Below, one piece after another: positions 1 to 33,969 of a stretch of 64,000 bases of DNA. A program made the translations under genes and the position numbers. This stretch comes from Lama guanicoe (lineage: Eukaryota). Position 1 is the first letter of the stretch; every line of letters begins with the position of its first letter. The DNA lies in assembly GCA_013239625.1 (NCBI GenBank), contig MU053594.1, positions 2,298,127 to 2,362,126 of the forward strand, given 5' to 3'. A model generated the notes under the pieces. That model did no database searches and had not been told where the DNA came from. It saw only the letters and a program-made list of their open reading frames with translations.

Positions 1-19
1 GAGATGCAAGAGGGACTCG

Positions 20-810
20 GCTTCCTTGGCTTTTACTCACGTGAAATGGGGACCACACCGGGATTTTGAGCAGCCCCAGTTTTCATTTTAAAAGGATGAC
101 TCTGAGACTGTGTGAGACTAGACTGAAGAGAGGCAAGCTCGGACTCAGGATGATCAGTAAGTCTGGTAGCAGTCCAGGCAAGCGATGCCTTGCACCAGGC
201 TGGCCGCAGCATAGGTGATGAGAAGTGGGCAGGTGATGGATATACTTGAAGGCAGAGTTTGTGAAGGAAGAGTTTCTGAAGAATTTCTCGATGAATTGGT
301 TGTGGGGTGAACATAACAGAGAGAGAGGTTTTAAGGAAGGCTCTGGCCTGAAAAATCAGAAGCATACAGTTGCCATCAACTGAGATGGGGAAGGTGCCGA
401 TGGAGCAGGTTTGGAAAGAACTGGTTTGGGGCATGTTATTAGACTTACCAGTGAAGGTGGCTAGTAAGTTGGATGTATGAGTTGAGTTAGAGAGTTGCGT
501 TGGGGCTGGAGATAAAAATTTGAGAGTTGTTGACATATAGATGGGATTTAAAGCTAGAAGACTGGATGAGAACCCCAAGGGGAATGACTAGAGGACAGAC
601 TGAATCCTGTCCCTTTAACATAAAGAAGAAGAGGAGGGTCAGCAGAGGAGGCTGACAGGGAACAGTCAGAGAGGTTGGAGGAAAACCAGAGGAAGCCAGT
701 GTCCTGGGAACCAAGTAAAGAAGATGGAACAGGAGGAGGAAGGGACCACGTGTGTCAAATGCTGCTGTCAGGTGAGGACAGAGAACTGACCCTTCTCTGA
801 GTTTCACAGG
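20..810 (-). mobile_element. L2 LINE fragment
   Basis: Minus-strand translation HLYVNNSQIFISSP resembles a decayed L2 RT motif (HLYADDSQIYISSP), and the composition is typical of L2. Confidence 0.8.
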
Positions 811-1300
811 AGCTAGAGTGTAACGGTTCTGTGATCTGGGTGACCAATGTCGCCATCACCATCAACAGCCACAAAATAAATCTCTGACTCAGTAACTAAT
901 GGAGATTTGATTTCAGAGAGATGTACACGGAACATTTACTTAGGAGTCAGGACATCCAGAATCTAGCCTCAGATCTACCACCAGAAATAGCCATACAGTT
1001 TGGGTCAAGTTGCTTAATCTCTCCTTAAGTACAAAATGTAACTAAAAACATTTATGCTTCCTATCTTGCAGGATTGCTGGGTGGGTCAAATGAGACTACA
1101 TATATGTGTGTATATATATCTACTATATAAAATATGCCTTGAAATTGATGAAGCTTTATATACATAATGAAAAAAGGTATGTTCTTGTTTATAACTCAAG
1201 AATGAATTGACCTTTAATGGGAGATGGTCTTTTTAAGAAGACCATCTTCTTCTTCTCTTGTGGTTTGAGAAGCAGCCTGAGCGTCAAGCCAGTGCACCAC

Positions 1301-4300
1301 CTAGAGAGGCCAGAAATATCTGACTGGGTCGCACCCTGAGGCATTTACTCCGTGAGGGGTCGATTTTAATCGAGACCGCGTGCTGCGCAAGTTGAAGCCA
1401 GTTACCTCTTCTGATGACTCTGGCTCCAGGTGAGACTGGTGCTTCCCTTCAATGAGCTTAGAGAGAAGATCCCTTCCTGTTTCAGAGGTGGGCTGCTCAT
1501 CCAGCAGAATAGCCCTTAGGCTTTGGTCAAGCTGACTGTCCCGGGAAGCTGCTGACATTTGCAGTGTGATGGAGAATGCTTCCCTGAAATAAGCCTTCAA
1601 CCCCTGGTCAAGGAAAAGGTCAGGGGGCAGATCACTTCGGCTTCCAGGCAATTGCTATTTAAGTTTTACAATAATAGTGGAAAGCAAAGCGGGGTTTGCG
1701 ATTTGTCATCTTTACTTGCTCTCATCGCAGGTTACCACTGTCATTTGTGATTCTGGTGAAGTTTACGTGTTGACAGTGAAATTCCCATAGAGAGCTGTGA
1801 CGCTGTTCTCACAGGAAGATCACGTCTCTCCAGCATTCTTAGTGTGGTGCATGCACTTGGTCATACGCTGCCACAGGAAATTTGATTGGGAAACTCTTCT
1901 TGGCCAGGCAGGAGGAACCAAAGGCCACCAGTGGGATTGAAGTAGATTTGAAATGTTACCAAGCTTATGGCATTTACTCTCCTGGGGACTGGGCTGTGAG
2001 TCACAGAGATGGAGAATCAAAAAGCCCCATGCGTGTTATAAATACCTTGTAAAAGGACCTCAGGAAGGCAGGGTTGGAGTCCTGGTGGAGGTCCTGGGCA
2101 GCGATGTGGGCCAGGCAGTGGATCAACAGCAGAACGAAGCCTCCCACCGATGCCAAACACTCTCTCCCAACAAACAGTGTGTTTTCAGCACTCTGAGCGG
2201 AGAAAATACCCAAACCCAGAGATGTCACCCTCAGGGAACATTTTTACTGCCTCTTCCTTTTTCTAGTTTTGTATGATGTAAAACAACTTTTGGAATCATA
2301 ACATCAGAGACTCCCTGGGCCTAATGGAAATTTACTGAAGGCAAGATTCAGATGTCAAGGGAAAAGGGACCGTTTTAGCTCAGCTCTCTGAATAAATCAT
2401 TTTCTCCACTGTCTCGCAATTTTTTTTGCTACCCTTAGCTTACAGAAAATAAACAATTGGAAATTCAGAGAAAAATCATTCATGTATCTATTTAAAAAAA
2501 TGGTAGGGGGGAGGAAATAATTAGGTTTATTTATTAATGGAGGTACTGGGGATTGAACCCAGGACCTCATGTATGCTAAGCACGTGCCCTACCACTGAGC
2601 TATACCCTCCCTGTCATGTTTCTGTTTTTTTTTTTAAATCAATGTCATCCAATTATTATTTCCTTACACAGCAGTTCTCAAACTTTAGTGTGAGTAAGAA
2701 TCACATGAGGGCAATTCTACTTTGGGGGCCCACCCCAGAATTTCTGGTTTCCTGGGCTTTAAGTGGGGCTTGGCATTTCCATTTTGACCAGATTCCCAGA
2801 TGGCTGGTTCACGGGGTCCAAGGACCGAAGTTTGAGAAGCACTGCCTTAGGGGCTTTCAGACTTTCCTTGCCTTTCATGACTTTATTGTAATCAAGTTCT
2901 CAAATCTCCTGTCTTGTCTAGTTGATTTGAAATAACTCCTTGTTCATCCTCTGAAGAGACAATAGGTTGGCACAGAAAAGCCTTGGATGGTTTGGAATCA
3001 GTCTGAGATCAGTTTCTGGAACCAGCTGTGGGTGGCAGCACAGACTGGTGGTTAAAAAATGAGTTTGGTGTCAAATGTACCTGGGCTTGAGTTTCAACTC
3101 TTGCTACACTGTGATCTTGGGCAAGTCACTGGGCCCCTCTGGGCCTCAATTTCCTAATTCATAAAATGGAAATGACAAGAGCACACATCCCTTGGGGTTG
3201 GGCTCCTGAAAGTTACAAGTGAGATAATACATGAGACACACGGCCAAGTGCCTGGCACTCAGCACTCAGTGAATCCGGTCTGTTTTCCCATCAGTAAAAT
3301 GGGATTAAATTCTTGCCTCTTTCATAGATTGCCTTGAGGATCAAGTGAAGTAATGCCTGAAGAATACAACATATGAGTCGTTTTTGGTCTTACTAAATCG
3401 CCTAACAACCTACTAGTCAAGTATAAATCATTTCCTCATCCTCTAACATTGGTTAGCAGTTCTGCCTCTCACATAGTGTTTACCAATGCAGTGTCTGAGT
3501 ATTTAAGGTCCATATCCACCTAGGCACTGACAGTCTACATATCTGAGGAACTTCCAGGGCAGGAACAAGTTAGATCCCTCTCTGTAGAAAGGTGCTGACT
3601 GTGCAGGAGTTCCTGAAGCTGGAACCGTGACTCTTACGGGAAACACCAGCCTGGAACCAACTGGCTTTGGTAGTGACAGAAATTCATTAATGGGCGCAGA
3701 GCCATTATGAGTCTCTGGGCACCAGCCCAGGACGGAGTCATTTCACTAATTAGAGAAAGCTCTTACATGGTGACATTTATTATGCCTTAGCTAAATGACT
3801 TATTACCTAGAGGAAATAAAATATGTGAGGACTTGAGAGAGAAAAACGTGTATGACATTTGTTCTTTTGGCTTCTCTCTTTATGAGACCCTAGAATTCTA
3901 TAAACCCACATCTGGGGCTGGGAATTTGAAGGACCTGATAGAAGAAGGAACCCTGGAAGGCATTGTCTGAAGCTTCCAAGGCAGGAAGACGGGAAGCAAT
4001 CTGCAGGGTGATCTCTGGAGCCTGCAAAGAAACAAAAATGAAAACAAAACCAAAACCCATCCTTTTGCTAAAAAAATTCTCATGCAGCTCAGTTACATAG
4101 CACCAACCAAAGTAATGGGAAGTAAATGCTTTGGAACATCAATTTAAATTGAGCAGGTTAAGTCGATTGTACTACATACGAACAATGGAAAGAGTATTTA
4201 ACTCGGTGTTTGAAATTCAGGAGAACTATAAGCATTGACTTACTGCTTTTCTAAACAGAGGTAGAGTTGCAGTCAGGCGCGAGGGCTCTCCGGCCATGAT

Positions 4301-7300
4301 GCCTGGGTTCTAACCTGGCTCCACCCTTTTATTGTACATTCTTGGGTAAGTTTACTCAACCACCTTATGTATTTCCCCTCCATTTTAAAATGAGGAAAAA
4401 ACATGATAGTATCTTTGCCGTAGGGTTTTTGTGAAGATTAGATGAGTTCATTAATGCAAATTAAAAGAGCATTTTCTGTCCTGCACAAAGTGCTGGATTC
4501 ATTCCACTTGCTGTCCTATCATCTGAGAGATCAGACCTTAGGTTGTGAAGTGACTCCCATCAGGCCCCCTAAAGGAGAGACTTAGAAAGTCCCCTGTTCC
4601 GGGTACTTCATCCTAAGGACTATCCACCACCTCAAAGCCTCCTTCCTGGCCACCCTGACCTCCTTGGCTCCATGGGTGACCGCTGCACAGAGAGGCCAGT
4701 CGCCAGACTCACATGAAGCTGGGGGATGAGGAGGTGCAGGATGGAGAGGCCGTGCTGGTAGACCACAAACTCCCTGGCAGAAAGGTCTGTGGATTGCACA
4801 GTTACCAGCTCTTCCTTCTGCATTATCTGAGGTTTTGGGAGATCCTGCAAAGAGCTTTTTGGGGCTACAGACATCAAGAGAAAACAGTGATAATTTCACT
4901 GGCTTTTCTGTATAGTGATGCTATACTAATAAAAACAACAACAAAATTCAGCTTAGGAAAAGGTGTATTTGTATCAATCTGTCCATCCTTCCCTCCCTCT
5001 ATCCCTCCCTCCTCCATCCATCCCCTCATCCATCCATCCATCCATCCTCCTGTGCTATATATATGTTGTGCCTCAGGCTCTCCTGCCAATCTTCATGGAA
5101 AAGCATTTCAGCCCCAGTCATTAGAAATGGCTCAGGCCAGCCACATTCTCTTTCCAGCTTCGAGAGGTGTTTTTGGCAAAGTGATCTGGAGTTCCTTTCT
5201 GGGGCAAGATCCTCTTTCTCTCTGTTTCCTCTGTCTCCCTGTGTCTCAACCTTTTCCATTAATTCCTTGCAATATGTGGCTGGGGTAAAACTCCAAGATT
5301 TAGATTCAGTGTTCAGTGGGGAGACACAGGGCTTTTAGGAATTCCCTTTAGGGAATTGGCCAAGTTATTATTACAGTGAGACTTTGATTTCTGTTTGTTA
5401 TTCCTTATATGGAAAAATCCCTTGGAATCTTTTTTTTTAAATTGAAGTATAGTTAGTTACAGTGTGTCAATTTCTGTTGTACAGTATACCGTCCCAGTCA
5501 TGCATATATATAAATATATATATATACACATACACACATATATTCATTTTCATTAAAGGTTATTACAAGATATTGACTATAGTTCCCTGTGCTGTATAGA
5601 AGAAATTTGTTTTTTTAAATCTATTTTTATATATAGTGGTTAACATTTGTCAATCTCAAACTCCCCAGTTTACCCCTTCCCACCCCCTTTCCCCTGGTAA
5701 CCATAAGATTGTTTACTATGTCTGTGGGTCTGTTTCTGCTTTGTAGATGAGTTCATTAGTGTCCTCTGGGAACCTTAGGATGGGGGTGGGGAGAAAGGGA
5801 TGATTGGCAAGGAGGAATTCTGATGCTTCTAGTCCTGGGTGTTACGCCACTGAACCCATGTCAGTGCGCCATGATAATTCTAAACAGGGGCCACCGGGGA
5901 AGGAGGTTACCTGGTTTGTGATGCACTTGTCCTTGATGTTCAGCTCCATCCTTGTGGACTTGGGACCTGGTGTCTACTTTCTTCAGGGTGGAGAAGAGTG
6001 GTGAGGTCCACATGATGTCAACTTTATCTGCATCTGAACAGAGGAGAAGAAAGTAATTGTTGGAGTAAGGGTGCAAGAACTGTGGCCAAAGACCAAAAGA
6101 GCCAGACGTGGCATCAGGTGTGACAGGCAGCCTCTATGACAGTGCCCAGGGTCCCCCGTTGTGTATCTGTGCCCTGTGTGATCTCTTCCCCTTGAGTATG
6201 GGTTGCATCTAGTAATTCGCTTCTAATGCACAGAATATGGCAGAAGTGGTGAGAGCAGGATACAAGAAGACTATGGTTTCCACCATTCTTTGCCCTCTCT
6301 CACTTGCTCTGAAGGAAGCTAGTCACCATCTTGTGAGCGGCACTGTGAAGTCCATGTGGCAAGGAATCGCTGTCTCTGGACAGCAGCCAGTGAGGACTTG
6401 AGGTCTGCCAACAGCCATGAGAGTGAACTTGGATTCTGCAGTCAAACCTTGAGATGACCACAGCCCTGGCCCGACGCCTTGATGTGGCCCGTATGAGACC
6501 CTGAGCTAGAGGCCCCCAGCTAAGCTGCACCCAGATTCTTGACCCACAGAAACCATGAGATAATAAATGTTTGTTGTATTAAGCAGTGAAATTTTGGGGT
6601 AGTTTGTTACACAGCAATGTACTCGTAATACCTTGGGTTTCTTTATATTCTTCCTTAAGAACCTATTGTGGCCACACTCTGATGGTGCTTGGAGCTCTAA
6701 TTATATTAGAACTTATCAAAGCATGATCAGGATTGGCAGCAGAAGGGAAAGCTGGACCCGTGACCAGCCTTACCTGTTCCTGGCCCCCCATCCTCCAGTC
6801 CTAGCCCGCCGCGTTGAGTTCCCGCCAGCACTGTAGTGAGGCTCTTCAGAAAGGGGATCAACTGCGGGCAGGCAGCAGCCTGGGCCCTGGGAGAAGTGGT
6901 GGTTGTTCCATAGAATCTGTCTCCAGGGTAATTCTCCAAACACACAGGGGTTCCTGAAGCAACAATCTAGGATGCAATAGTCAGGACCTAGTTGTGTGCT
7001 TGGTTCCCACGTGTGCCCACTTATCTCTGAAGCATCCAACAAAAACTGGACATGCAGGTCTCCTCGGCCAAGTCTGGAGGTCAGTACCTGGGTGTGCAAG
7101 AGCTGGAGGCGGCTCAGCGCCCGTTGGTACTGCAGCTGCCCGAGGGCCCTGTCCAGGAAGCTCTGTCTCTCCCTCACCGTCTCCTGGAACTCAGCCGAGA
7201 GATGCTGAAGCACCTAGGACACGGGAAATGAAATGCCCCAAGAGAGTTGGAGAGTCTTTCTCTTTCTTCCGGTTCCCCTCCCTGCCCACCTGCTGCTCCC

Positions 7301-10300
7301 TGAGCCCACCCACCTCTGAATGTTGCATTGTCCTGAAGAGCTACATCTGATGACATGGGCAGACGTGCTATCTCGCATGGGTCCCCTTGTCAGCCCCTGA
7401 GCCTCACCTGCCTGGGGCGGTTCCAGATCTGTGGACTCTGATTTTTCCTCTGCTGGAGCCGCATCTCCTGCTCCTGGCCCCGCAGCCGGCCAGCTGCCTG
7501 CCTGAGCTTTTCGGCTGCCTGTCCCAAACTCTGCAAGACTTTCTGCATGCCCAGCGTCACCTGCGTCTCCCGTTCCCACTCCTCTCTGTCTGCTGCAAGG
7601 GGCAGAGAAAAGGGCCACGTGGCAGCGCCACCCCTAGGGGCAGGGAGGAGAAGGAAAGACGCAGTGGCTTATTGGAGGGGGCTGGGGGGACTGCCAGGTT
7701 GGAGCCAGGGCCCGGCTGGGGGCCTGGGAGGTGAGCACATGGAGAGGGCAGGAGGCAGCCCCGCTGGGCACCTGGGGGCGGCGGCACCACTCCCAGAGGT
7801 TTCTGCCCTGGGATCTGGGCCCCGGAGATGCGTTCCCACCTTGAGAGAGCAGGCCCCGCTCCGGGCCGCTGTGCCTGCTCAGGGCTCTGGCTCGCCTCTG
7901 GGTCTCCCGCAGGCAGGAGGCCTCCAGTGCCGCGCAGGCCCCCTCAGCCGCCTTCAGCTGCGGGGATGGGAAGCCCAGAGCGGTGGGCCGGGGAGGGGAG
8001 GCGGGAGCTCTGGGCTGGACCAGCGCCGCCTCCCCCTCCATCCTGCAGAGCCGCGGAGGGATAACTGAAGCCGGGCCTGGAGCTGGGGCATCCTGGCCCT
8101 CTGCCCTGAGAAGGACTCCATGCCTGTGGCTGGGAACAGACAATGGCCCCCCACTTCCAAGAGAACCCTGTGAGGACTGGGCAGGCGGGCGGGTGGGGCC
8201 GGGAGGTGGGGCCTCACCTGCTGCCCTGGGTCTTTCCCTGGAGCGGAGAGCAGCGCCCGACTCAGGGCCGCCAGGTGCTCCGCCAGCCGCGCCTCCTCAT
8301 GTTCCTGGCGGCGCCAGTGCTGCTCCCGGGCTCTCAGCTCCTTCTCCAGGGTGTCCAGCTACAACATCCAGATTGTTTAGGCCTCGGACACTTTTTCTCT
8401 TCACAGCCTGGGTCTGGCTGAAGGTCCCTAAAGCCTCTTAAGACATAGGTCTCCCCACCCCTGGGCGTCCATGACTAAGCCTAGTGAAGCAGGTGACTTG
8501 GCGGTAAATGGAAAAAGAATCACCACACACCACACACCTCCCTGCCTGTTTTGAACACCTGGACTCTCCAGGGTCACCTGCCCCTGCCCACCTTTCTCCT
8601 GGGAAGCCAGAGGGGATGGGCGTGTGGCAGCGGGAAGGTGTTCCCAGACCCTCAGATACCCTTCTGTGAAACCGTGAGTCGGGGCTAGAATTTAAATTTC
8701 GTAGCTTCTAATGAGAATCTTTTATAACATATCCATCCTGGTTTCTGAAACTGTAACTAGGCTGAGAATGTATGGGAGGGCCCTAAATCATTTTCATTTT
8801 CCTGGAGAAACTGCCAAAGGCTGAATTACTGCAATATCCTCCTGACAGGGCTTCCGGCTCTAGTGTGGCCCTGCCCCCATCCATCCTCTGCACAGCTGCC
8901 AGAGGGAACTTTCTAGAATGCTGATTACAGATACACACACACAAGCTTGACAATGTCTGGAAGGAGGTGTGCCAGCCCGTTAATAGTGGCTGCATCTGTG
9001 GGAGACACTGGAGGAGAGAAGAGTGTTCAGATAGGGGAGCAAAACGGGGGTTGGGGTATGTTGACAGCAGATGGAGTGAAAGTGAAGGGGAGGAGGGGGC
9101 TCTGGCATCTTTAATTGGATACTTTAAAAAAAGAAGTAGGATTTTGAGTAACTTATTTTCTTTTTGTATTGTTCCAAATTTTCCAAATGTGAAAGCCTTG
9201 CAAATATCCCTGTCTGATCATATCATGTGTCTCCTTAGAATCCTTCGATGGCTCCCCACGGCTTTCATGGTAAGTCACATTTCGTGGCTTCAGTCAAGCA
9301 CACAAGACTGTTCCTGATTCGTTTCTGCCCTTCCTCATTGGCCCCATCTGCTATCTTTGCCCCTGTGCCTTCCTCATTCTCCTGGAACATTCATGATCTC
9401 ACACGTGCTACCTTTGCACGTGCTGGCCCTGCTTCAGGTTTCAGTCCAAGCTCATCCTCTTTGGGGAAGCCTCCCTTGAACTCTCGCCCTGTGATTTAGA
9501 TGCCCTTCCTCCGTGCTCCCTTCGCACCCCTGTAAGCCACGATCATGGCTGAAACCTGTGGCTGGCCAGTTCCCTGAGGAGAGGAGCCCTGTCTAGCTAT
9601 CTATGCATCTCAACACCTAACACAGTGCCTGGAACATAGAAATATCTTGGTAAGCAGTTGCTGAGTGAATGAAGAAATGAGCAAACCCCTCCTACGTACC
9701 AGACCAGGGTCCCTCACTTCCCGAGGTAAGGCCTCCAGCACCTGGACAACGGGCACCACCACCCCGGCAGAGGGATCCGTTTGAGCACCAATGACAGGCC
9801 CAGCTTCCCCCGTCAATGGGTCTATGGCTTGAGCCCCAACTGCAATTGGGACCAGACCTGCGGGATGCCAAGCCCACCATCGGCGTTAGTAACCAGAAAT
9901 GGGGAAAGAAGGAAGGAGTGGTCCTGGGAAGAAGGAAGCACTGCTGGGAGGGAGCTGACGGAGCCCTTCGAACCCTGCTCACCCTTCTTTATTTTGGGTC
10001 TCAGCAGCCCCAGTGATGGTAGCAGGATGACCCCATTCCTTGGCTCACCAGTGAATGGACTGGGGGCACCCCTCCTGAGCTTTACAGGGGCTTCAGTCAC
10101 ATTCCTGACTCTCCCCCACCCCTCAGGCTTTCAGAGGCCCCAAGGCCCCTCCTACCTTTGCCATCAGCATCTTCCATTGAACCTGCCAGGGGAGCGGCGG
10201 CACCAGAATTCCCGTCACTCTCCATGCCCAGGACGGGAACCAGGAGCCCTGAGCCCTCGGGGTCTGGGATCTCCATCCCATACAGGACCGGGACCCTCAG

Positions 10301-13300
10301 GGCTGTCCCAGGATAGCACATCATCCCTAGCACCAGGGGAGAGGGGCACAGAGAGGAGGAGATGAGGGCCAAGGGCCACACCAGGCCCACAGGGCTACAC
10401 CCCTGACCAGAGAGGCGTCCCTGCCAGGACGGCATTGTTTCCTTTGGGGCCCAGCTTAGCACTTTGAATTCAGAGGGGAAGAAGTGAAGGGCAATAAGAC
10501 TTCTGGGATATGGAGAACAATTTCCAGACTACACTGAAAAGGTGAAAGAGAAGGGGACAAATATTCTCGAGCGCCTGCTGTGTGCCAGAGTCTGAGCTCA
10601 GAACTCCACACAGATTGTGCTTTATCTGGTCCTACAAGTAAATCAATCTTTGAAGTATGTACTATTTTCATCCTCATTTTAAAGATGCTGTAACAGAGGC
10701 AGAGTGAGGTTTAGAACCTTGCCCGAGGTCAAAGGGTTAACAAATGGTGGGGCAGGTCTTCAAACTCAAGTCAGTTCTGATCCCAAGCCCTGATTCCTTT
10801 CTGACACACCACGGGCAGAAGCTTCTAGAAAGAGTGAGTGAGGCTCTAGGCAGGTGCCCCTCCTACTTCCTTTCCCTGCCCTTCCTTGTGTTAGTGCAGT
10901 GGGTGCAGTGGAGGAGTGGGGTGGGCTCCTTTCCTGAGGTGGTTAATGGGACGCTGAAGGCTGTTGCAGGAATGAAAGTGACAAGGGGACGGGGGACTCG
11001 GGGGACTCAGGTTTTAGGCCTGGGTGTGCAGCTAACTAGCTACGAGATCCTGGCGGACGAGTCTCTTAACTCCCTCAGCTTTGGATTCTGCAGTTTCACA
11101 TGGGTGTTATGTTACAGTGCTTGGGGATCCTATGAAATTACAGGAGAATCCGCACTTCACACACATTGAGTGTGAGACCCGGTGGAATTGGCAAGAGATT
11201 AAAAGACAGAGATGAAAAACCAAGCAATCATGAGCTCAGCGTGGAAAGTCATCAGATTCTTCTCTCTTCCCTTGATCATGTGTGTGCCTGGTGGGGCTGC
11301 AGCCCTGTCCCTGAGCCTACGGGCTGAGGAGGACCAAAGCACCAGGCCATTCTGGGGCTGGGACTTCAGGGCCGGGAGCCTCCAGTCCAGGTCAACACGT
11401 ACCGATCCTGCCGCCGCTGACCATGATGCTCTCCGCTGCCTCCCGCTGCCCCTGCAGCCTCCGGGCCTGCTGCAGGATGTGGTGCAGGCTCAAGGCCAGC
11501 GCCTGTCTCATGTCCTTGATGGCAGCCTCCAGAAGCCCCTGTATCCTCGACTCTGGCCTCTCCTGGGTCCTCTGGAGCACTGTAATCACTCGCCTCTGGG
11601 CCACCAGCACGTTGGCATCCAGCAGGGCCTGTGACCCTCCCGTTTGGGGTATGGTCCGGCCCTCCTGTCGTGAAGCCCCCTGAAGCCGGACTGTCTTCCT
11701 GCTCAGTGGCTCCACAAAGCTGTCACCAGGCAGCATGAGGTTCCCCGAGGCGTCTCGCAGCCCTCCCAGTGCAAGCACCTGACCTGGAAGCAGGAGCCCA
11801 AGAGAGTGAGGCGGGGAGGGATGTAGGCAGATGAGGGATGAGGGAGCCACAGGGGTGGGGANNNNNNNNNNNNNNNNNNNNNNNNNNNNNNNNNNNNNNN
11901 NNNNNNNNNNNNNNNNNNNNNNNNNNNNNNNNNNNNNNNNNNNNNNNNNNNNNNNNNNNNNNNNNNNNNNNNNNNNNNNNNNNNNNNNNNNNNNNNNNNN
12001 NNNNNNNNNNNNNNNNNNNNNNNNNNNNNNNNNNNNNNNNNNNNNNNNNNNNNNNNNNNNNNNNNNNNNNNNNNNNNNNNNNNNNNNNNNNNNNNNNNNN
12101 NNNNNNNNNNNNNNNNNNNNNNNNNNNNNNNNNNNNNNNNNNNNNNNNNNNNNNNNNNNNNNNNNNNNNNNNNNNNNNNNNNNNNNNNNNNNNNNNNNNN
12201 NNNNNNNNNNNNNNNNNNNNNNNNNNNNNNNNNNNNNNNNNNNNNNNNNNNNNNNNNNNNNNNNNNNNNNNNNNNNNNNNNNNNNNNNNNNNNNNNNNNN
12301 NNNNNNNNNNNNNNNNNNNNNNNNNNNNNNNNNNNNNNNNNNNNNNNNNNNNNNNNNNNNNNNNNNNNNNNNNNNNNNNNNNNNNNNNNNNNNNNNNNNN
12401 NNNNNNNNNNNNNNNNNNNNNNNNNNNNNNNNNNNNNNNNNNNNNNNNNNNNNNNNNNNNNNNNNNNNNNNNNNNNNNNNNNNNNNNNNNNNNNNNNNNN
12501 NNNNNNNNNNNNNNNNNNNNNNNNNNNNNNNNNNNNNNNNNAGGGTAGGGGGCGAGGGGGAGATGGGGAGGGGGTAGAACACTGTGGTGGCAGGAGGAGG
12601 AATGCCCTTCTAGGTTGAAAAATTTTGCTGTACTTTTACTGCAGGAGCAGCTCAATTCTCTCTCCCCTCCCGGGGTGGGGGTGGGGGGGCACTGTGCTGA
12701 AGTTGGGGATAGGGGAGCCGGGAAGGAGAGGGAAGGTGGGGGTAAGAGGCAGAGTGAGGATGAAGAGTTGACATACTGGCTTGGGGTGGAGCCTGCAGCC
12801 TGGGCCAGAATGTGGAGGGTCTGGGGGGCTGTGAGGAAGGGACTCAGGGGATCAGGCCAGGTAGGGAGGAGAGGGCGGAAGGACAGCACGGAGGGCTGCC
12901 AGGAGACCTGTGCTTTCATCCAGCCCGACTCCCAGGATTGGAGAGATGCCTCCTGTGACCGGATCCTCCATGGGGCCCCCCAACTCTAGAGGGGCCAAGG
13001 TCTTGGTGAGGGGATTGCAGTATGTGCCCCCAAGAGTGAGCCACTGCCTCGTTTGTGGGTGCAGAGTCACAGCCAGCACGGGCACCTCGATGCCAGTGAG
13101 GGGGTCTGTCATGAGAGCCCCCAGCTGTGATGCCCTCCTTGGCTGCAGGACAGGCAGGCGGGTGGCTGCAGGGGAGCCTGTGGCAGGACAGGTGGGGTAG
13201 GGCACGTAGGGGAGGACGGCAGCGTCTGATGTTCGGACGGCACCTGGACAGGGAGGGAGACAGGGAGGTGCTGACACCCACCGCTGCCCCCAGCCCTGCT

Positions 13301-16300
13301 TTCTTTCACCGAGCAGTTCTCTTCCGCATGGAGCCTCTGCAGCCGGAATATTGAAGTGAGGAAGGAGGAGAAGGCCTTTAACGCTCTGCTGGTCACCAAG
13401 CCTCACTGTCCAAGGGGAGAGCCCCGCTTCCCATGCTGTGCCCCTGGGAGTTCATTCCAGAAGGCCCCAGTAAGCCCCAGTGAGCCCTGTGCTGGGCTGG
13501 GGCCATGTAACCCAGAGTCTCACCAGAACTGGAGTCAGTGGTGGGCACCAGGGCGGCTTCCTGCAGATCGTAGCCCAGATTTCCAGCCTCGGGCAACACC
13601 CGCCCAGTGTCAGGGTGGATGAAGTAGCCAGTGGGTATGGGCCCCGGGTGGCCGCTGGCAGGGAGCATCACACAGTTGGGGCCAGGGACCATCAACTTGG
13701 TGATGGGATTCACACTGATGTCATCAGCGCCCCCTTGAGGGCTTGTTGAGGCTGCAGGAAAGCAGACACCTGCTCAGCCCTGGGTCGGAGGCCATCTGGC
13801 AGGTTAGTGGCTCCTGCCTGGTGACTAGAAGGAGTTGGCGAGAACCCCACCCCAACCACACCCCGGCACGGGGTGTAGCAGGTGCTTCCTGAGGCAAGGG
13901 AATCTTGTTCTTTGCTGAGTCCAGGTCAGGACTCCACATTCGGGATGTGACCCTGACAGCATCATATCGCAGGCCGGCAGCCACTGGCAGGGCCTTGGGA
14001 AATGGTGGTGACCAGATGGAGCTCGGGGATCCTAGAACTCAGCATGCCCATGGGGTCCCACAGGGGGTCCTTCTCCCGCTCCCCCTTCCCAGGCAAGTTC
14101 AGCCTTTTGCATTCATCAGCCAGGCTTTTGCTCTCAGGAAGAGCTACCGTATATGTAAAGCTACCCTTTGTGGTGGTTTTGTTTGTTTCCTCCTCTGCTC
14201 TTTCCATGTCCGAGACTCCGTCTTCTGTAACTTAGACGTTTGCCCAGGATGCTGCACAGGAAGCCCCTCCCAAACTCGGGGGTTTCCACTTGGTTTGGCC
14301 CTGCAGGGTGTCTCAGGGGTGGGACTGTCGCCCTGAATACAAGGCCAGGTTTCCTGGCCGAGGCTGAGCAGGGCTCACCTGGCGGCAGCAGCTCCGCCCC
14401 AGTGCCGGTGCCCAGGACGCCCCAGGCCTTCAGGCGGTGGCCCTCCTGCAGCACCACCTGGGACAGGTGGCCCAGTGCAGCGTCCAGCTGGGGGCCTTCC
14501 CTGCAGGGGCACAGGGGAGAACCCATCAGAGGGATGGGTAACTAGGGATGGGAGAAGGACTCGTCAGTGTGGCCAGTCCTGGGACCCACGAAGCCACATT
14601 CGCTCCCCACCCAGTCCAGATCTCGCCCAGCCTGCCTCAGATTCACCAGGCACACACCCTTCCGGGTTCTGCCCAGCCAGGGAGGACTTCACCGGCCTGG
14701 AGCCTGAATGTGCCTTCAGCAGCCGCTGAGCTGCCATCAGTGCTGAGCAGAAAGAGCCCCACTGCTCCTGCCGTGCGCGGAGGTCTTGGCGAAGGAGCGT
14801 CAGTTGGTGACTAAGGCTTGCTGCGTACTCGCCTGCCAGGTGCCCCCTCCGCCTGGCCTCCTCCTCTGCTGTCCTGGCAGCTGCCTCTGCAGCCTGGGGT
14901 CAGAGACAACCTTCCCTGCTTACCTGCAGGGCCCACAGCCACTGGGGACAGCAGCGTCGGGGACTGGGCACCCCGCAGAGCACTCTGGGCCGGTAGGGTG
15001 GCAGTGGCCATCAGGGTGGGGCTAGAACCCCGGGGCCTGGGAGATGGACCAGGTGCTGAGGGGGCCTCAGTGAGGGAGGAGAGTTGCAGCTGGGCACAGG
15101 GACCAGATGGGAAGCATGAACAGGGCCAACCTGTTGCTGCTCCCTCTGGAGGCTCCCCGGAAGCTGGCCAGCGGAGGCTGGGATGCGACACTCAGCACCC
15201 CACAGCTGCAGGAGCGACCGGGCTTCTCTCCGGAGTCTGAGGCACAGGAGTTTGAGCTGTGAGAGAGGATGGAGTTGGCACCAGGAGGGGCCCAGCCTCT
15301 TTCACGCCTGTGGTCGCAGCGCCCCCTGCTGCCAGTTTGCAGAGGGACTCCCGAGGACCAAATGCCCTTACACTGGAAGGAAGGAACAGGTGAAGACCAG
15401 TCCAAGCTGGTCTGGTTAGTGGGGAGGGTATAGCTCAAGTGGTAGAACGCATGCTTAGCGTACACAAGGTCCTGGGTTCAATTCCCCAGTTCCTCCTCTA
15501 AATAAATAAGCCTAATTACCTTCCCAGCAAGACACAGCTCGCCTGCCACCCAGCTTAGAAAACTTGGATTTCTAGTTGCTGTCATTGCTCTCTTAGTTCC
15601 AATACCTGTCACCTACTGGCCTGCATTTTCTCACCCAGATGGGCCATCCAGAGGTGGCTTTGGTACATTCCCTACCAGTGATCTGAGGCTCCAGGGCTCA
15701 TAAAATCAGTCCTATATTTAATCTGAGATCTTCTATCTCCCCTCCCCGAATGATTTTTCCCCCCAGTTCATTATGGATACACTGAGGGTTTCTTTAGGCT
15801 CTGTGTCCCGTCACCAGCTCTCTCAGAGACAGATTCGCTTCTGGCCCCACTTGCTTCTCTACCTCCTCTGCTCACCTCCTCCTTGGTCTGACTGAGTTTG
15901 GTGGTCACTGACAGAGACTGTCTGAGCAGGATCCCATAGAAGGTTTCCGTGTCAAACCCCTCCAGGTCCACCTGCTCCTCCGTCTCCCAGCCCTCACCTG
16001 TGGGGGGCGAGGGAAAGCAAGATTATCCCCCCAGAAATGCACACATGAGCTTCCCCTACAGGTTCTCCGTGTTTCTTCGTCCTCAGATCCTCACCCTCTT
16101 GCTACTGAAAGCTCGGTCTTTTGACAAGTTGCATTAGTTTTGCTGAAGAACTTGTTAGAAATGCAGAGTTCCAGGCCCCGCCCCAGACCTGTTACTGCTG
16201 CAGAGGATTCCCAGGTAACTCCTAATCACCCCTGAAGTTTGAGAAGAACAAACGAGTTCCCGTGCTGCTCTCTGAGGCCCGTACTTTGAGGAGCAGGAGT

Positions 16301-19300
16301 AGAAGGTGAAACATCTCAACATGACGCACAAGGCCTCCTCCAGCAGTGCCAGGCATTCCTAACTTGGCCACTGTATCCGTGGTTACATGGCCCTTTTCTT
16401 TTGGAAAGTTTGCATTTTGGTGTCTTTGTCCTCTCCTACACTGTGTACTCCTAAAACCTGGCCGTGTCCGGCCTGCAGTATCTTCTCAATAAACATTTAC
16501 TGAGCAAATGGATGAGTGTAGACAGATGGAACAAGATCTAGGAAGATGAACAGAGGAAGCGGCAGCGGGCTGGCTGCATGTGGGGGCACCTCTGGGAGTC
16601 CAGCCCCAGCCTGGCACTCACCGGGACCTCCTGCGGCCCTGGGAGCATCAGAGTCCTGGTGTGGTCGGCCTCTCCTCACTGCTGTTACCTTAGCTTGCGG
16701 GGAAGTGTAGGCCTCCAGGTTGTAGCCCTGCTGATGCTTCCTGAAGGTAGGCTGGGGAGCTGCCTTCCGGGCCCAGCTCAGGCTGTGACACTGAACCTGC
16801 GGGCAACATCACGGGCGGCGAGAAGGAAAGGGGAAACTGGGGAGAAGCACCCTTTCTGAAGACGCTGAGAGGGGGAGATCCCCGCTCGGGGGTGGTTAGG
16901 GAGAACCTCCTCTTCTCTTGCTTGGACCATTCTAGTAGCCTCTCTCTCTCTTTCTTTCTAATCCATCTCTGTCTTCCACCTTGCTGCTAGAGTAAATATA
17001 AAAGTCTTACCAGGTTTTCTGCCTTGCTCAAAATTCTTAGTTGATCCTCACTGCCTAGAGGATAAAATCCAAGCTTCTTAGCAGGGCCCATGCATCCATC
17101 CATCATTTGGTCTCTGTCCCATTTCCAGCCTCTTCCCTGTCCTGGCACCCAAAGCTGCAGTCACAAGGACCACACTGGGTTGCCTGAGCAGATGGACCTC
17201 ACTTCGTGCCTCGGAGTCTTGGCTTGTAACACTCTCATTCTTACCCTCACCCCGCCTCCCACGTGCATTACCCTCCCACCCCAACTCACCAACCCCTTGT
17301 CAATACAAGGACTGAATTCTTGTATGTCTCACACTTCAGACCTGTTTCAGGGATTCCCTTCTCAAGAAAGTCTGTCCTGACCTCCCAGGGAGACAGTCAC
17401 CTCCCTCCTTTGTGCAGCCAGCGCCCCCTGGGCACACTCACCAGAGCTCCTCCCACTCGCTGACATTTATTTGAGTCCTTGTCTGCACTCTTCCTACTAA
17501 GCTTTGACCGCTGGTGGCCTGAGGTTGCACCTCACACACTCTGGCATCTTAGCCACCGTGATAATCCCTACTATGGGTGGGGACTGAAGACCCGCGCACA
17601 TGGCATTGGAGAGCTGGTCTGGCACAGTGGTTAGGACGTCACTTGTCCAGCTTCACTCACCAAGAGAAGCAGGCAGAGCCCCAGGAGCAGGACAATCTCC
17701 CCCAGGACTCCTGGCCAGTCAGACCTCTTCGGGGGCCTGGGGATCCTGGCGATGCCAGTTTGGACGAGATACCCGGGAGTCGTGGAGACAAAGGGCCCTT
17801 CCACAAAGCACTGGCCCCCTGGCGGGAGGGTGCGGATGTACTGGGTGGAAAGAAATCTGTTCAGCCTTTGTCCCACTGTCTGCCAGAACCCAGCCAGGGG
17901 ACAGAGAGGGAACCCAGGCCTGTGGACACTAACCAAATAGTCCAGACCTTTGTGCCTACCTGAGGGGAGCAGAATCTGGGTTTTCCCTGGGAAACTAGTT
18001 TGTATCACAGAGGTGTCCTGGTAGCACGTTCTGGGGCCCAGTCAGCACAGCCTCTTAAAGGTTGGACTGACAGGCTGAGCTACTAAATCCTGTGTGTGAT
18101 CGCGACAGTGCACCTGGATCAGTGGTGACCTCACACACAGGTCATGTGGATAAAAGCCTGCGTAGATCAACTTGGGATCTGTGCCTTCAGGATGAAAGAG
18201 GGGTAGGCAGGATGAAATGAAGTAAGGGGCCGTGAGAGATGGCCACACAGTCTGATGTCCTTAGAGAAACCTTGTATTTTCATCCTTACAATTGTCCCCT
18301 CCTTACACACTGCAGGTTGCTGCCCTGGAGTGAACCCGTGGCATACCCAGAATTATGTCAGGATTGTGGGAGCCTGAGACTTTGTTGGGGGCATCTGGGG
18401 CACCTCTTCCCTGAAGATCTGTCTGAGGTGGTCATGAGGCAGTAGTTTTTAAAGAGAGGGGTGATGGTGGGATACCGATAAGGCAGACCACCACAGACAA
18501 ACCATCTTCCGATGCCGGTTGCTGTTCAGACGAAAGACATAGACCCCAGGCTGGAACTGCTGCAGGAAGAGGTGGGAGCTTTGATCATGGAGCTGGGACT
18601 CCTCAGCCAGGGCCCGGAGGCGCCCCCAGTCAAATTCCCCCTTGGTGTTATAGAAGTGGCCCCTGGGATGGAGGAAGGAAGGATGGAGTGTTGTCTCTCA
18701 GCTGCGGGCACAAGGAGCATCTCCTCCAGGGCCTCGATGGGGGCGGGGCCGTGTCCTCTGGACACTCACAGGTCATACTCAGGGTAGTGCTCCCGGGTCA
18801 CCAGAAAGGCCAGTGTGTCATTGGTTTGGAGGCAGACCGTGGGGTTTCGGATGCCCGGCTCCGGGGACGACAGATTCCCGAGGTGGGTGGAGTTGAGGCT
18901 CAGCAATGAAGGAGAACTCAGATGTGTGTCCCTCGACTTTCCTGAGCAAGATTCAGGAAATGAGGAAGGGCAGCCACTTTTCAGGTGGATTCGTGCAGGG
19001 ACCTGGGGAAGGTGGAGGAGAGAGAGGGGAGGAAACGGGTGTTCACAGTGATGCTCACCTGCATCCTGGCCTGGGAGCCTGGGGTCCCTGAGAGGCAGGC
19101 CGAGGGAGTGCAGTAATTCATGGCCTGGTCTGGTCAGGCCCAAGAAGCCAGTCCCTAGAACAAAACAGGGATGACCCTGAAACTACAGGGTTGGGGACAG
19201 AGTTGCTTCTAGTGTGTGGAGGCAGGAAGTTGCCCATCCCTGATTTGCATGAGGCAAGATTCAGCTTTCTAAAAAATTAGGGGGAGGTGGGTGGATCAGA

Positions 19301-33876: not shown

Positions 33877-33969
33877 GGGGGTGGGTATGACTCAGCAGTA
33901 GAGCGCATGCTTAGCATGCACGAGATCCTGGGTTCAGTCCCCAGTACCTCCATTAAAAAAAAAAAAAAC
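33877..33969 (+). mobile_element. tRNA-derived SINE (Vic-1 type)
   Basis: ...gtagagcgcatgcttagcatgcacgagatcctgggttcagtccccagtacctcc followed by poly-A. Confidence 0.85.

Follow-up and report, generated by a model that had tools for sequence, protein, structure and literature searches.

Two homologous blocks of predicted beta-hairpin repeats in the putative cytoplasmic tail of an orphan camelid membrane protein

A stretch of 64,000 nucleotides of guanaco DNA (Lama guanicoe, contig MU053594.1; hereafter the window) carries on its minus strand an intact gene whose exons 15 to 19 encode two homologous blocks of beta-hairpin repeats. The second block is a copy of the first, and a helical hairpin lies between them. 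Beta-hairpin repeats as such are a familiar structure; the 47-residue unit, the two-block arrangement and the protein family described here appear to be undescribed.

Repeat unit and predicted fold

An earlier note on this DNA listed 15 turn motifs of the type [D/N/H]-P-x-T-G in exons 15 to 19, and indeed, all 15 are present and in frame. Three turns had been missed, YDLQEA (amino acid [aa] 815), TDSSSG (aa 826) and CYPGT (aa 1073), which brings the total to 18. Positions of introns and repeats past residue 378 run three below those of the final 1669-aa model. The parts of the domain are as follows.

13524 to 13751, minus strand: exon 15, lead-in hairpins VNPITK, IHPDTG, YDLQEA and TDSSS/G (strands in the AlphaFold2 models)
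12908 to 13243, minus strand: exon 16, TCPATG, then block 1 hairpins TDPLTG, LHPQTR, CNPLTK, EDPVTG and LDEST/G
11635 to 11783, minus strand: first part of exon 17 (whole exon, 11783 to 11403), end of block 1 with RDASG and VEPLSR; block 1 is aa 872-992
11410 to 11634, minus strand: second part of exon 17, helical hairpin insert between the beta blocks, aa 993-1067 (helices in the AlphaFold2 model of the lynx orthologue)
10156 to 10326, minus strand: exon 18, block 2 hairpins CYPGT, PDPEGSG, SDGNSG and EDADGK
9700 to 9857, minus strand: exon 19, block 2 hairpins IDPLTG and TDPSAG; block 2 is aa 1068-1170

Of the 15 motifs listed in the note, 7 fit the strict pattern [DNH]Px[TS][GKR], the remainder being looser. 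This pattern was found 7 times within exons 15 to 19 (425 aa) and never in the remaining 1241 aa; in 5000 shuffles, the mean count was 0.08 and the highest 3. A hydrophobic strand resembling PVLG/A, said to follow most of the motifs, was found after 7 of 15 with a strict pattern and after 11 of 15 with a loose one. Periodicity was determined after aligning the model with 119 of 162 proteins, each covering more than 400 aa of the region, against 1000 column shuffles. The repeat signal that the note had proposed to look for is significant: the profile autocorrelation of block 1 peaked at lag 15 (z 4.9) and lag 47 (z 6.7) and that of block 2 at lag 15 (z 5.1) and lag 32 (z 4.4), with family-wise p values of ≤0.002. 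In the lead-in part, lags 16, 31 and 47 fell short of significance (family-wise p 0.06 to 0.10), and the profile autocorrelation of the helical insert had no period of 15 or 47. Low complexity or chance occurrence of the motifs is excluded by the shuffles and the periodicity. The turns are about 15 residues apart with a spacing of 15-15-17, and therefore, the unit has 47 residues and consists of three hairpins. The offset between block 1 and block 2 is 215, with echoes at 168 and 262, and profile self-alignment with hhalign placed block 1 on block 2 with a probability of 95.9 to 97.4 (P 5.6e-9).

The domain is predicted to fold as a compact all-beta structure. AlphaFold2 models were obtained for the lynx and bat orthologues, which are 83 to 84% identical to the camelid region, and not for the camelid protein itself. 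The model of lynx P0008 (578 aa, 99 sequences) had a predicted local distance difference test score (pLDDT) of 79.2 overall and of about 90 across both blocks. Short strands flank the turns, helices 322-346 and 350-393 form the insert, and neither block contains a helix except for one 3-residue turn. Lead-in and block 1 of bat P0012 (228 aa, 71 sequences) were modeled with a pLDDT of 88.6, a predicted template modeling score (pTM) of 0.86 and 17 strands, and no helix of ≥4 residues was present. Hairpins are thus predicted with high confidence, and the prediction is neither disordered nor non-hairpin. With block 1 and block 2 as two chains, the score was 0.00, but the alignment was not used in that run, which makes it evidence neither way.

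Searches of Pfam and the PDB and with Foldseek found no annotated family or fold, and the domain is thus unannotated, as the note had supposed. Pfam contained no family for the camelid-like row at E values up to 10, and a single weak match to an unrelated family was seen in 1 of 9 rows. The PDB profile search gave only 4 weak, helical matches, NCBIfam gave 5 single-member matches that were judged to be chance (E 0.09 to 0.22), and the ESM Atlas gave no usable match. With one narrow pattern each, 0 of 5 matches in prokaryotic genomes and 0 of 7 in viral contigs were confirmed as relatives. When the 228-aa model was compared with 48,161 PDB representatives, 47 chains had a Z score of ≥2 and none had one of ≥5; models without a clear match typically reach Z 7 to 8 in this alignment. 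The best alignment was with the KOW domain of DSIF (Z 3.8, root mean square deviation [rmsd] 2.2, 40 residues aligned), and HEX1 gave Z 2.8 to 2.9 with 47 residues aligned. Foldseek found nothing at E values up to 0.001 in the PDB or BFVD and no plakin domain among the matches listed, and re-alignment of 984 of its top 1000 gave a best Z of 3.9. Model residues ~46-147 were barely covered and the wide search with the 578-aa model was swamped by its helical hairpin; these negatives establish neither a difference between the folds nor the novelty of this one. The repeat fold is, as modeled, a candidate new fold.

A trimeric fibre like the adenovirus shaft, which is built from 15-residue beta-repeats, would agree with the significant lag of 15 in both blocks, and the top viral Foldseek rows were indeed adenovirus fibres (best E 5.6e-3). 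However, these rows (ranks 1 to 4) had TM-scores of ≤0.12 and rmsd values of 36 to 50 Å, and a single chain folds confidently alone (pTM 0.86), which makes such a fibre very improbable.

The note had placed an unannotated beta-hairpin repeat between coiled-coil-like segments, which holds, and had likened it to the repeats of plectin and other plakins, which does not. According to two reports, the plakin repeat has 38 aa, consists of a hairpin and two helices and is present in 4.5 copies, and plakin domains bind vimentin via a basic groove (PMC4782060, PMC4726743); the repeat starts with the hairpin (PMC4782060). A plakin-like domain that binds intermediate filaments would therefore be suggested by Asp-led beta-hairpins in a cytoplasmic tail beside coiled coils. 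However, the period is 15/47 and not 38; at lag 38, z was no higher than 1.9 (family-wise p 0.92), a value from the lead-in part. Two antiparallel helices after each hairpin were not seen in the 228-aa model or in either block of the 578-aa model, and none of 9 repeat-region sequences, the camelid-like row included, matched a plectin/plakin family of Pfam at E values up to 10. Moreover, the median net charge of the three parts is -1, -3 and -5 (120 rows), and the conserved columns, as counted in the sequence, comprise 4 basic versus 15 acidic ones, in contrast to the basic groove of plakins. We consider a filament-binding domain of the plakin type very improbable.

Gene, introns and layout of the protein

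The exon model was built from the tblastn placement of orthologues and from splice signals, its basis being homology and not reads. The gene runs from 21970 to 1406, has 29 exons with GT-AG at every modeled intron and encodes at least 1669 aa without a stop codon. Identity of the model to Camelus ferus P0001 is 88%, to bat P0003 81%, to mouse Gm32742 66% (whole model) and to turtle P0077 43%, and exon 16 is 98% identical to a C. ferus protein. A pseudogene was considered and rejected because the frame is intact and the orthologues are conserved. The final coding exon (the last ~25 to 40 aa in orthologues) was absent from the three minus-strand frames of window positions 1 to 1405 and probably lies beyond the window edge.

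1406 to 21970, minus strand: gene model, 29 exons, camelid orthologue of mouse Gm32742, rat RGD1562811 and zebrafish si:dkey-103g5.4
21304 to 21521, minus strand: exon 2, sole remaining Ephrin_rec_like (GCC2/GCC3-type) cysteine repeat of the ectodomain (weak PF07699 match)
17661 to 17714, minus strand: predicted transmembrane helix, ~aa 477-495 (hydropathy peak 2.55)
2046 to 4864, minus strand: conserved C-terminal globular domain, exons 26 to 28, with an invariant HxxxH...D (HCLAH at 2120 to 2106)

The protein thus consists of a hydrophobic N terminus, a cysteine-rich region, a single transmembrane helix and a 1,170-residue tail. The PF07699 match is weak in orthologues (E 0.003, below the cutoff), and the repeat of exon 2 aligns with the last repeat of the giant homologues described below, which have one transmembrane helix at the equivalent place. 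If the cysteine-rich side is taken as the outside, the position of this helix puts the hairpin repeats on the cytoplasmic side, as we infer here. The HxxxH...D of the C-terminal domain is invariant across all 9 sequences aligned, which range from rat to Diphylleia, and presumably resembles a zincin metal site without the catalytic Glu. Zincin metallopeptidases are defined by HExxH with a catalytic Glu, whereas the second position is C, A or T here, and Pfam and PDB sequence searches with the C-terminal domain gave a zincin no support.

The junctions between the motif exons are all of phase 1 (introns 14 to 18, 5 of 5), which the note had correctly seen and had taken as a sign of modular expansion. 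This expansion was not borne out. Phase 1 accounts for 12 of the 28 introns, and a run of ≥5 arose in 13.6% of 100,000 permutations (p 0.14). A Gly codon is split by 4 of the 5 introns 14 to 18 and by 8 of the 12 phase-1 introns overall. Moreover, the introns lie out of repeat register at aa 752, 828, 940, 1067 and 1124, no pair being related by 47, 168 or 215, and no equivalent intron positions bound each repeat unit as a symmetric phase 1-1 module. Also, 10 of 10 homologous open reading frames (ORFs) on ENA contigs of 0.1 to 3 Mb, which form three 90% clusters and one singleton and so count as fewer than ten independent cases, traverse the positions of introns 15 to 18 in one frame and stop near intron 19; these stretches are most simply single genomic exons. 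An origin of the repeats by exon duplication was rejected on the basis of the intron register and the uninterrupted homologous ORFs, and the domain is older than an exon-level expansion would imply.

Several other features of the window were recorded. An assembly gap of 680 bases lies in intron 16 (11862 to 12541), where orthologues show no exon missing. Among ORFs of ≥110 aa between 22000 and 64000, no convincing protein-coding gene was recognized (family libraries were not scanned). tRNA-like matches at 2538 to 2609 (minus strand) and 33881 to 33952 (plus strand) and a similar stretch at ~15400 to 15520 are probably tRNA-derived short interspersed elements. Fourteen RNA or presumed-RNA runs share 0.07 to 0.18 of the window's words, and 4 of them, all from one study, are labeled "reproductive system metagenome"; neither observation was used as evidence. 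The fused models P0065, P0131, P0106 and P0088 join the gene to PF17664 (which we take to be HOATZ-like), LAYN or an ankyrin gene with an OCA motif and therefore indicate a LAYN/HOATZ/POU2AF neighborhood; none of these neighbors was detected in the window by tblastn.

Distribution and evolution of the family

A first search found 87 relatives among 1518 candidates and a wider one found 164 among 8000; the 120 of these 164 that were listed, from which the zebrafish name si:dkey-103g5.4 is taken, span mammals to cartilaginous fishes. A profile of 9 amniote sequences matched 429 of 1.84 billion representatives at E values up to 0.001, of which 150 were listed and 30 looked up. The looked-up matches with names were 6 protist proteins (Diphylleia twice, Fabomonas, Chromosphaera, Barthelona and Barroeca, a choanoflagellate reached via a cluster member) and 1 fish protein. 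The proteins of oyster (6488 aa), the choanoflagellate, Chromosphaera, Diphylleia, Fabomonas and Barthelona are cysteine-rich, single-pass giants of 5,000 to 7,500 residues, whose parts follow the same order as in the camelid protein, namely, cysteine repeats, ectodomain core, transmembrane helix, coils, hairpin blocks, long coils and C-terminal domain. Exceptions are the two Diphylleia copies, one of which has no match to the C-terminal domain while the other begins at the transmembrane helix. Block 1 was present in 33 of 33 homologues examined and is preceded by the ectodomain core in 25; the other 8 are apparent fragments. CxxG[TYSFHQ][YF] motifs number 92 to 152 in the giants versus 1 to 2 in vertebrates, and PF07699 is precomputed for Fabomonas P0224 and was found in 5 of 16 homologues at E values up to 0.01.

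The repeats are among the best-conserved parts of the protein, with 61 to 64% identity to turtle versus 34 to 56% elsewhere and 45 to 46% to oyster versus 26 to 41%. The stretch that separates block 2 from the C-terminal domain varies from ~320 aa in 5 mammals and 370 to 480 in ray-finned fish to 900 to 1060 in sauropsids, amphibians and lungfish and 1340 to 2775 in Diphylleia and six giants. Between exons 24 and 25 (6774 to 6033), mammals lack ~650 tail residues found in reptiles, birds, amphibians and lungfish, and no remnant of the alligator tail segment was found in the window by tblastn. Ray-finned fish show a separate shortening of the tail.

In a tree built from 44 block segments of 24 chosen proteins, the segments fall into two groups of 22 (support 98/93). 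Two rows labeled block 1 group with block 2, namely, the long-branched one of Barthelona and the only segment of Barroeca, which by position is its second block. Each of the two Diphylleia proteins contributes a segment to both sides of the tree, and therefore, the duplication of the block predates the split of Diphylleia from animals.

No human protein was among the matches listed, and the models of macaque P0025, marmoset P0029 and baboon P0046 are short or lack several exons, which may reflect decay in anthropoids, poor annotation or filtering.

Proposed function and comparison with known systems

Conservation in the repeats falls on Gly, Pro, Asp and hydrophobic residues, among which no catalytic set is evident, and therefore, the domain is probably an interaction module. 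That it was kept while stalk and tail shrank suggests that it holds an essential contact. To our knowledge, every named non-vertebrate carrier has a flagellated stage. Since, in addition, the ephrin-receptor-like cysteine module builds a ciliary mastigoneme filament in Chlamydomonas (PMC10602792), we favor anchoring of the surface protein to a ciliary or cortical scaffold. The hairpin domain would then be a non-enzymatic docking or assembly knob on the cytoplasmic tail that couples a long surface stalk or receptor to the submembrane scaffold of flagellated cells, be it the cilium base, the flagellar membrane or the adjoining cortex. The mammalian protein, in which stalk and tail are shorter but the knob persists, would work in sperm or in epithelia with motile cilia. 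We give such a docking knob a probability of roughly 40%. A weak lead may come from zebrafish si:ch211-286b4.4, a putative related giant. This gene is among those up-regulated in testis (bioRxiv 10.1101/650218).

Several points weigh against the docking knob. The link to cilia rests on five protist genera and animals, and names were obtained for 7 of the 30 looked-up matches out of 429, so non-ciliated carriers are possible. Fabomonas has block 1 only and no separate second block, and therefore, the two-block form is dispensable. The fold models come from lynx and bat orthologues, not from the camelid protein. Also, similar cysteine repeats serve non-ciliary roles, e.g., in CRMPs, which function in exocytosis (PMC9815656). 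Indeed, the protein might be a receptor or tether of granules or extrusomes in the secretory pathway, like the alveolate CRMPs, with hairpins that bind coat, tether or motor proteins. CRMPs have Ephrin-receptor-like cysteine repeats and are required for rhoptry secretion (PMC9815656), and the coiled-coil-like tail, which extends for 1,340 to 2,775 aa past block 2 in the non-vertebrate giants, would resemble a tether. However, CRMPs have 9 transmembrane segments versus one here, and we consider this role rather unlikely. Alternatively, the domain could be a purely architectural element, a self-association site or hinge that fixes the register of the coiled-coil tail as well as its oligomeric state and has no outside ligand. 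It lies between long helical segments and extrudes a helical hairpin, and conserved Gly, Pro, Asp and hydrophobic positions are as expected of a fold core; however, conservation above that of the flanking coils over a long evolutionary distance suggests, but does not prove, a constrained surface, and a ligand-free element seems unlikely.

The docking knob can be joined with the other observations into one tentative proposal, whose chance of holding as a whole we put below even: a new fold would mark near-pan-eukaryotic giant ciliary surface receptors, the tail being anchored at the flagellar apparatus by the hairpins and capped by an HxxxH metal site that lacks Glu. If so, vertebrates would have deleted nearly the whole stalk of 3,500 to 4,300 residues, and Gm32742 would be an unrecognized, very old cilium or sperm gene. 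If the link to cilia holds, the gene is a candidate for male fertility or motile-cilia phenotypes. The orthologues are named yet functionally unstudied in the literature searched, in which no publication on the family was found by title or abstract start (supplementary gene lists and subscription journals lay outside the search) and zebrafish si:dkey-103g5.4 was not mentioned. Gm32742 was met in one table entry (PMC10531624) and RGD1562811 in one listing (PMC5068731). Few domains are still found that fold confidently, belong to no class and are conserved between flagellates and mammals. The present one makes an orphan mammalian gene approachable, since it is a defined, expressible domain of 230 residues that comes with a family history and a place of action that can be tested. 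The family also presents a clear case of miniaturization from 5,000 to 7,500 to ~1,700 residues, in which stalk and tail were lost separately in vertebrate lineages and the domain was retained.

CRMPs and the Chlamydomonas mastigoneme protein share the extracellular PF07699 (GCC2/GCC3) module with the giant homologues. Extracellular Ephrin-receptor-like repeats as in CRMPs are found in the giants and as one weak copy in mammals, whereas the nine-transmembrane core of CRMPs is not: the model and most full homologues have one internal transmembrane peak. The mastigoneme is an extracellular filament, unlike the single-pass family described here, and the available passages on CRMPs and the mastigoneme protein do not mention a cytoplasmic hairpin domain (PMC9815656, PMC10602792). 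With plakins such as plectin, the family shares cytoplasmic repeats with a beta-hairpin and an Asp on its first strand, but a 38-aa repeat of hairpin and two helices with a basic groove stands against an all-beta, net acidic domain with a 15/47-aa period. Small SH3-like barrels (KOW, Tudor, HEX1) align weakly over 40 to 47 residues (Z ≤3.9), that is, over one-fifth of the model and at scores typical of common arrangements, and unlike these barrels, the repeat domain has its own 47-residue unit. Choline-binding/CROP and MORN repeats are all-beta hairpin repeats, and like these and the adenovirus fibre shaft, the domain consists of successive short hairpins.

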